Shown here one piece after another: positions 5,593 to 5,655 of a stretch of 7,735 bases of DNA. The stretch lies in IMG/VR virus record IMGVR_UViG_2713896783_000029, one strand, 5' to 3'. Numbering within the stretch: position 1 is the first letter of the stretch; every line of letters starts with the position of its first letter. Made by a program: the position numbers and the translations under genes. The notes under the pieces are model-generated. The model was given only the letters and a program-made list of their open reading frames with translations. It made no database searches and was not told the DNA's origin. Source of the stretch: a virus (taxonomy: Duplodnaviria; Heunggongvirae; Uroviricota; Caudoviricetes).

Positions 5593-5617
5593 CCCTGTTC
5601 ACACTGTAACCATCATG

Positions 5618-5647
5618 AACCGCTGCGGCGGTTTTTTTATTTTCAGG
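5618..5647 (+). terminator. Hairpin plus T-run between terL and the capsid gene (possible weak terminator or RNA processing/stability element)
   Basis: AACCGC (5618-5623) / GCGGTT (5628-5633) 6-bp stem with loop TGCG, followed by T-rich tttttttatttt, immediately before the SD AGGAGG (5645-5650) of the next gene. Confidence 0.35.
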
Positions 5648-5655
5648 AGGCTGAT

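Follow-up and report, generated by a model that had tools for sequence, protein, structure and literature searches.

In the head module of phage HK97 the genes follow the order terS, terL, portal (gp3), protease (gp4) and capsid (gp5), and an HNH gene adjoins cos. The stretch of viral DNA analysed here (7,735 nt in length, hereafter the window) raises the question of where its portal gene lies, or whether the element has one at all. According to the ORF list and the sequence itself, the terL gene (3931–5592) is separated from an ORF encoding both prohead protease and capsid protein (5656–7593) by 63 nt (5593–5655), and no ORF of a portal family was found between these genes or anywhere in positions 1–7735 using the ORF list and profile searches. 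The original prediction was therefore right that no portal gene intervenes and that the gap holds a hairpin and a T-run. It went on to propose that the portal must be elsewhere, with the partial gene from 7638 as one candidate, or else absent, as in satellite elements that borrow the portal of a helper phage.

Identity of the locus and its packaging and capsid genes

Positions 2700–7735 of the window were placed by megablast in 1287 of 5426 complete Escherichia coli genomes and in 94 phage records. Over positions 2579–7735 the window is 99.9% identical to the chromosome of E. coli NCCP 13946 (NZ_CM167685.1; 4 mismatches, no gaps), 99.0% identical to the Stx2c phage 2851, 98.2% identical to the Sakai prophage Sp10 and 96.8% identical to the Stx1 phage BP-4795. 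Identity and synteny with the long-tailed lambdoid Stx/EHEC group (Pankowvirus/Marienburgvirus-like late region) extend over 5.16 kb. Given these nucleotide identities to members of the family, the window is almost certainly the packaging and head block of a long-tailed lambdoid E. coli prophage of the EHEC/Stx type. Phage 2851 (Pankowvirus), BP-4795 (Marienburgvirus), Sp10 and vB_EcoS_phi330 are approximately 97–99.9% identical across the HNH-terS-terL-capsid segment and share with the window the gene order, the starts and stops, the intergenic hairpin, the small ORF and the downstream portal. Their head modules show no material difference, whereas members vary in the lysis and moron region further upstream. 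No stx genes are present in the upstream region shown for the closest chromosomal copy.

Two further genes were observed upstream of the packaging genes, among or just after the lysis genes. A gene for a KilAC-domain antirepressor (ANT) occupies positions 312–1007, and a gene for a small TonB_C-domain protein, annotated as 'TonB family protein' in the closest genome, occupies positions 1930–2271. Both are moron-like cargo of this prophage copy, and the region that carries them differs from phage 2851, BP-4795 and Sp10. When compared with the 99.9%-identical chromosome, three runs of 50 N (1258–1307, 1521–1570 and 2529–2578) replace 4 nt, 193 nt and a 22-nt overlap respectively; they look like scaffold spacers between short-read contigs and not like masks of equal length. 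The duplicated 22-nt overlap creates an artificial ORF (NIALEHK...NIALEHK) on the minus strand at 2403–2735. In the protein searches, fragments of the small-ORF protein and of the portal turned up in large numbers on short contigs, from a few hundred to a few thousand bases long, which suggests that the window stops at a site where this multi-copy module commonly interrupts draft assemblies. The window itself is probably one short scaffold from such an assembly, with 7735 as its last position.

Table 1. Features of the packaging and head block, in window coordinates.
Feature	Position	Strand	Basis or remarks
HNH endonuclease, packaging accessory of HK97-type cos phages	2717–3082	+	Pfam HNH E 7.5e-7; phrog_589
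Non-coding HNH-terS gap, 288 nt, probable cos region	3083–3370	.	Analogy with HK97-type genomes
Terminase small subunit, terS	3371–3934	+	Pfam Terminase_2 E 4.5e-8; phrog_641 E 2.4e-68
Terminase large subunit, terL, 553 aa	3931–5592	+	Start overlaps terS stop by 4 nt
Intrinsic-terminator-like hairpin and T-run	5617–5645	+	Terminator scan; fold; conservation
T-run	5635–5645	+	Directly after hairpin stem
Shine-Dalgarno AGGAGG of capsid fusion gene	5645–5650	+	Sequence reading; 5 nt before GTG 5656
Prohead protease (S78) :: scaffold-like coiled coil :: HK97-fold major capsid protein, single 645-aa ORF	5656–7593	+	GTG start
AGGAGG	7602–7607	+	Before post-capsid hairpin; ATG 7638 lies 8 nt after hairpin
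GC-rich 9-bp hairpin just 3' of capsid stop	7608–7629	+	dG −18.9, z −3.0
First 32 codons of conserved 73-aa ORF, not portal	7638–7735	+	phrog_829

The features of the block are collected in Table 1. Phage 2851, BP-4795 and the E. coli chromosome all carry an annotated HNH endonuclease here. The gap between the HNH and terS genes probably contains cos, as it does in HK97-type genomes; the linear record of Pseudomonas phage PAJU2 begins just before the ORF at the terS position. The order of genes would be normal if the 553-aa ORF were in truth the portal, a reading for which nothing speaks beyond its position and portal-like size and that the original prediction had proposed to check by profile search. 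However, the ORF matches TerL_ATPase (E 2.2e-11; PF03354, 44.2 bits against a cut-off of 23.7) and TerL_nuclease (E 3.8e-10; PF20441, 39.8 bits against a cut-off of 24), as well as phrog_9 (E 2.1e-145), and several terL PHROGs span its full length. It gave no match to a portal family, and a separate protein with a strong portal_HK97 signal sits downstream of the capsid gene. The profile searches thus reject a mis-called portal, to which we assign a negligible probability.

In the fusion ORF, Pfam places Peptidase_S78 at residues 48–152 and Phage_capsid at residues 386–635. The protease assignment is supported by PF04586 (34.7 bits against a cut-off of 21), while TIGR01543 scores 46.4 bits, below its cut-off of 59; the HK97-family capsid assignment is supported by both PF05065 (52.7 bits against 24.2) and TIGR01554 (78.3 bits against 27.5). 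The ORF as a whole matches phrog_617 (E 3.3e-261), and the protease residues H55 and S110 (in GLSVGF) are invariant in 10 homologues. For both terL and the fusion ORF, the RefSeq annotation of the 99.9%-identical chromosome gives the same start and stop. Judged from its sequence, the capsid half is HK97-fold. A profile of the fusion protein gave only weak capsid matches in the PDB (the solved capsid 9d9w, E 7e-6), and a phmmer search against PDB sequences gave no match. AlphaFold2, run on the 645-aa fusion with an alignment of 10 sequences, returned a mean pLDDT of 38.8, in which only helices 195–261 reach approximately 75.

Fusion of protease and capsid is already catalogued as a concept, in NCBIfam NF045541 and phrog_4523; a phrase search of the literature for papers on such fusions returned nothing relevant. 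The present protein scores 54 bits against NF045541, below the curated cut-off of 525, and by its sequence has the NF045541 architecture, yet belongs to a different family. Reasoning from HK97-type assembly, we infer that the protease, being built into the capsid subunit, would enter the procapsid with it, that the helical segment 195–261 would serve as a delta-domain or scaffold, and that the protein would then cleave itself.

The spacer itself contains a hairpin with a 7-bp stem (5617–5623/5628–5634; dG −10.7 kcal/mol and z −3.3 in a fold of a 34-nt segment). The terminator-like pattern alone is not above chance, since 4 sites were found compared with 5.0 expected in shuffled sequences. Nevertheless, the hairpin and T-run occur at the same place in all 12 Enterobacterales relatives, so that a chance match is rejected and the hairpin is taken as a real conserved element. 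In these loci the pattern is CCCGC-N3-6-GCGGG followed by T6–8 and GGAG, with the E. coli version reading AACCGC/GCGGTT; the loop varies freely among the 12 loci. Covariation is almost nil (1 compensatory pair out of 7), the sequence itself being conserved. The GGAG before the capsid start is kept in all aligned relatives, and the hairpin is absent from the alpha- and beta-proteobacterial relatives. Across 2600–7735 the plus strand showed no sigma-70-like site. Late transcripts made by Q-modified RNA polymerase would be expected to read through the hairpin in a lambdoid late operon, and therefore its role is likely to be one of three: it may block unmodified transcription, stabilize or process mRNA ends, or supply a U-rich leader that increases translation of the capsid gene.

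Position of the portal gene

The portal gene was located by following the closest chromosome (L003) beyond the end of the window, as the original prediction had recommended. Using the gap-free offset between the two sequences, the portal ATG falls at the equivalent of position 7805, 70 nt beyond the window end. In all four records compared (phage 2851, BP-4795, Sp10 and the closest E. coli chromosome), a 222-nt ORF comes after the capsid gene, and the portal gene is next in line. Beyond the portal, the four records encode a gp6-like connector, a head-closure protein, a gp10-like protein and a tail completion protein, and further on the major tail protein, chaperones, the tape measure and the tail-tip genes, all in the same orientation. 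The identity of the portal in these relatives is clear from PF04860 (E 5.9e-81, 272.6 bits) and TIGR01537 portal_HK97 (365 bits against a cut-off of 112), and its sequence matches the solved HK97-family portals 9lbn, 8cez/8fql (HK97) and 6tba (RcGTA). In the nearest genome, which differs from the window by 4 mismatches in 5157 nt, the portal ORF of 859 aa runs without interruption and the tail module is complete.

The expectation that the portal must be elsewhere is therefore borne out, in that it lies downstream, after a 73-aa ORF, in the 99.9%-identical genome and in all the relatives. For this copy, to judge from that genome's sequence, there is very little doubt that the portal is present and co-oriented, and merely placed after the capsid gene. 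The canonical order terL, portal, protease, capsid gives way here to terL, protease::capsid, small ORF, portal. The full order in the family is HNH, (probable cos), terS, terL, protease::capsid, small ORF, portal, post-portal protein, connectors and tail. All genes of the module point the same way and are separated by short gaps or overlap slightly; between them they encode every head and packaging function of the HK97 type.

The partial gene at 7638, put forward as a candidate portal, turned out to be something else: it is the start of the conserved 73-aa ORF, and the portal begins after it. In full, this ORF occupies 222 nt (16944–17165 in phage 2851, L001), equivalent to window positions 7638–7859. 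It has no match in Pfam or NCBIfam, and among PHROGs it belongs to phrog_829, to which no function is assigned; an AlphaFold2 model reached a pLDDT of 52. A word-index search for homologues recovered the ORF from E. coli only, and its wider conservation comes from six-frame reading of the loci, in which the core MAKIRYLQ.THD...CA.VLV.LGKAEY is kept in Salmonella, Serratia and Pantoea. In these three genera the stop codon of the small ORF overlaps the portal ATG, as TAATG or TGATG, which suggests that the two genes may be translationally coupled. In E. coli this stop has been lost and the small ORF consequently runs into the portal gene, where its tail extends for 55 nt and is variable or frameshifted between strains.

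Upstream of the small ORF, a hairpin with a different sequence (GGCGGGG...CCCCGCC) occupies the same post-capsid position in Salmonella, Serratia, Pantoea and other loci. Analysis of this element with RNAalifold was hampered by a poor MAFFT alignment, and the hairpin was recognized by eye in each sequence. It might stabilize the 3' end of the capsid mRNA or bring the Shine-Dalgarno sequence near the start codon.

Conservation of the order and alternatives to an intact phage

To assess how widespread the order is, we used a query of 6454 nt running from the terL start to the portal stop, and counted as a hit one collinear place covering at least 80% of it. The collinear block was present in 1243 of 5426 complete E. 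coli genomes and in 91 phage records. Prophages of Salmonella, Serratia and Pantoea, in which the capsid fusion is 75–77% identical, have the same order (HNH, Terminase_2, TerL, S78 plus capsid, Phage_portal and an unannotated protein of 300–348 aa), continuing with Phage_connect_1, HCP, gp10-like and gp17-like. A scan of one genome per GTDB species yielded 28 loci from gamma-, alpha- and beta-proteobacteria, which span Enterobacter, Proteus, Arsenophonus, Rhizobium, Methylobacterium, Brucella, Haematobacter and Diaphorobacter, the most distant being 47–57% identical. By tblastn, all 28 loci have the portal downstream of the fusion gene, and 24 have terL upstream of it. Of the remaining four, two start no more than 40 nt from the fusion gene; in the other two, tblastn did not detect terL. 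Related prophages thus share the order, a point on which the original prediction had called for a comparison.

The isolated phages FSL SP-016 of Salmonella and PAJU2 of Pseudomonas also have this order. Both resemble the module in having the terminase, the protease-fused capsid, the small ORF or ORFs, the portal, the post-portal protein and the adaptor, and PAJU2 ORF003 is annotated as 'structural protein; prohead protease fused capsid protein'. The capsid fusion is 77% identical in FSL SP-016 and 48% in PAJU2; the hosts differ, and PAJU2 has two small ORFs before the portal. The likeness to HK97 is found in the TerL_ATPase/TerL_nuclease, portal_HK97, S78 protease and HK97-family capsid proteins, in the HNH gene beside terS, in the gp6-like, HCP and gp10-like connectors, and in the match of the portal to the HK97 portal structures. 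The module differs from HK97 in that the portal follows the capsid gene instead of preceding the protease, that protease and capsid form one ORF, that a small conserved ORF stands before the portal, and that a protein of 300–400 aa with no family match stands after it.

Several members of the family are known as particles or as infectious phages. Phage phi330, a Pankowvirus whose first 5994 nt are 99.7% identical to the terL-to-portal block of phage 2851, has been plaque-purified; it reaches titres above 1e9 PFU/ml and is a siphovirus with a 145-nm tail that uses OmpC (PMC12502783). All morphogenetic genes are conserved in Sp10, which is packaged, transferred to K-12 and stably lysogenized (PMC2669165). 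The particles described have an elongated head of 44 x 95 nm and a flexible tail of 147 nm, and the gene organization of the head region in Sp6, Sp9, Sp10 and Sp12 was already remarked in 2009 to be slightly different from that of lambda (PMC2669165). An induced Pankowvirus Stx2c phage likewise has a prolate head and a long tail and lysogenizes MG1655 (PMC12029490).

These observations bear on the suggestion of a satellite or parasitic island, one that would package its DNA with a terminase and capsid of its own but take the portal from a helper phage. The window itself lacks a portal ORF, and defective O157 prophages are packaged with the help of sibling prophages (PMC2669165), both of which would accord with such a reading. 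However, the likeness to phage satellites (P4, PICIs and capsid-forming PICIs) is only superficial and consists in the incomplete-looking head module of the window. Whether the identity is 99.9% or as low as 47%, each of the relatives examined has a gene matching portal_HK97 after its capsid gene, and connector, tail-tube, tape-measure and tail-tip genes follow the portal in relatives. In contrast to satellites, the elements are complete phage genomes of 45–60 kb with lysis, Q, replication and integrase modules, and members of the family form plaques alone (PMC12502783). Absence of a portal and dependence on a helper, the marks of a satellite or PICI-like element, were thus not found in the relatives, which carry portal, connectors and tail. 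With a portal in all relatives and plaques formed by phi330 alone, the satellite reading is rejected for the family, and for the window we consider it extremely improbable.

A second alternative is that this particular copy has decayed, with the portal or later genes truncated or frameshifted, and depends on sibling prophages in the cell. The portal was scored as defective in Sp6, Sp9 and Sp12, and many O157 copies of the module are individually defective (PMC2669165), so this copy could also carry a damaged portal. These three Sakai prophages have defective portal or head genes and are yet packageable (PMC2669165); IS629 interrupts terL in phage 1717 and F349, the portal is a pseudogene in WGPS8, and the window probably derives from a scaffolded draft that ends at 7735. 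On the other hand, the packaging and capsid ORFs in the window are all intact and full length, and the portal ORF and tail module of the nearest genome are uninterrupted and complete. Decay of this copy is therefore unlikely, and the preferred reading remains a head module whose portal lies just beyond the window.

The original prediction had stated that a portal gene immediately downstream, with the rearranged order conserved in characterized functional phages, would make this an ordinary variant. That is the situation in phi330, Sp10, FSL SP-016 and PAJU2. Because the portal lies directly downstream and the order is conserved in infectious phages, we are highly confident that the displaced portal is an ordinary variation on the HK97-type head module, and one that annotators have already recorded: public records have shown this gene order since the Sakai genome and BP-4795. 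We know of no mechanical consequence of the position of the portal gene within the operon, since head proteins assemble in trans. A more far-reaching view would be that the displaced portal marks a distinct and old head-module lineage across the Proteobacteria that has not been formally described, with a possible G5/G6 switch in E. coli (see below). Members of this proposed lineage would share a fused protease::capsid gene and, after it, a portal gene with a small ORF coupled to it and a conserved post-portal protein. We regard this view as unlikely.

The portal/post-portal junction and the meaning of the gene order

Outside the window, approximately 1.35 kb into the portal gene, we observed a tract of five or six G residues (G6 at 18456–18461 in phage 2851, L001; G5 at 33812–33816 in Sp10, L005). 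With G6, as in phage 2851 and the closest chromosome, portal and post-portal protein are fused in one ORF of 859 aa. With G5, as in Sp10 and BP-4795, a portal of 454 aa ends in a stop that overlaps (ATGA) the start of an ORF of 407 or 461 aa. The G5/G6 difference is the sole one at the junction between the fused and split forms; the junction peptide reads ...AMFRGDTEKMTER... in the fused form, and the C-terminus of the split form reads ...AMFRGILRK. Searches with allele-specific 43-mers and 44-mers counted 1369 copies of the fused G6 allele in 782 genomes and 913 copies of the split G5 allele in 487 genomes. Portal and post-portal protein are separate ORFs in all 29 non-E. coli loci that have both parts, and the split form is on this ground the ancestral state. 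In the more far-reaching view mentioned above, the G5/G6 tract might act as a heritable or slippage-based switch between fused and split portal. The fused allele may be functional, a product of decay or a switch.

A conserved protein of 300–460 aa always follows the portal in the module, even in alpha- and beta-proteobacteria at approximately 30% identity. It is encoded at 33828–35051 in Sp10 (L005), at 10492–11535 and 10488–11390 in two further records (L006 and L008, respectively) and at 6054–7058 in PAJU2 (L040). Its scores stay below the cut-offs of all Pfam and NCBIfam families; in three orthologues there is a sub-threshold match to CBM_5_12 near the C-terminus. The E. coli versions contain tandem repeats of 162 nt (54 aa) that vary in number.

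In phi330 (L004, PV189401.1; approximately 5150–6230), comparison with phage 2851 revealed a 2-nt insertion some 70 nt before the G6 tract. Three further 1-nt indels lie within 90 nt in the post-portal gene, and the annotation is split into three ORFs. These indels may be Sanger assembly errors or real changes. As the sequence reads, the 2-nt insertion would truncate the portal, and the post-portal gene would again be an ORF of its own.

Overall, the locus illustrates that the apparent absence of a gene close to the end of a short window or draft contig may simply reflect where the sequence stops, and that the order of the head module is conserved, not invariant. As a discovery the displaced portal amounts to little, the order having been annotated before and its phages being infectious. 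Features of possible interest to specialists in phage assembly are the Enterobacterales-wide hairpin, the small ORF and post-portal protein, and the G-tract.
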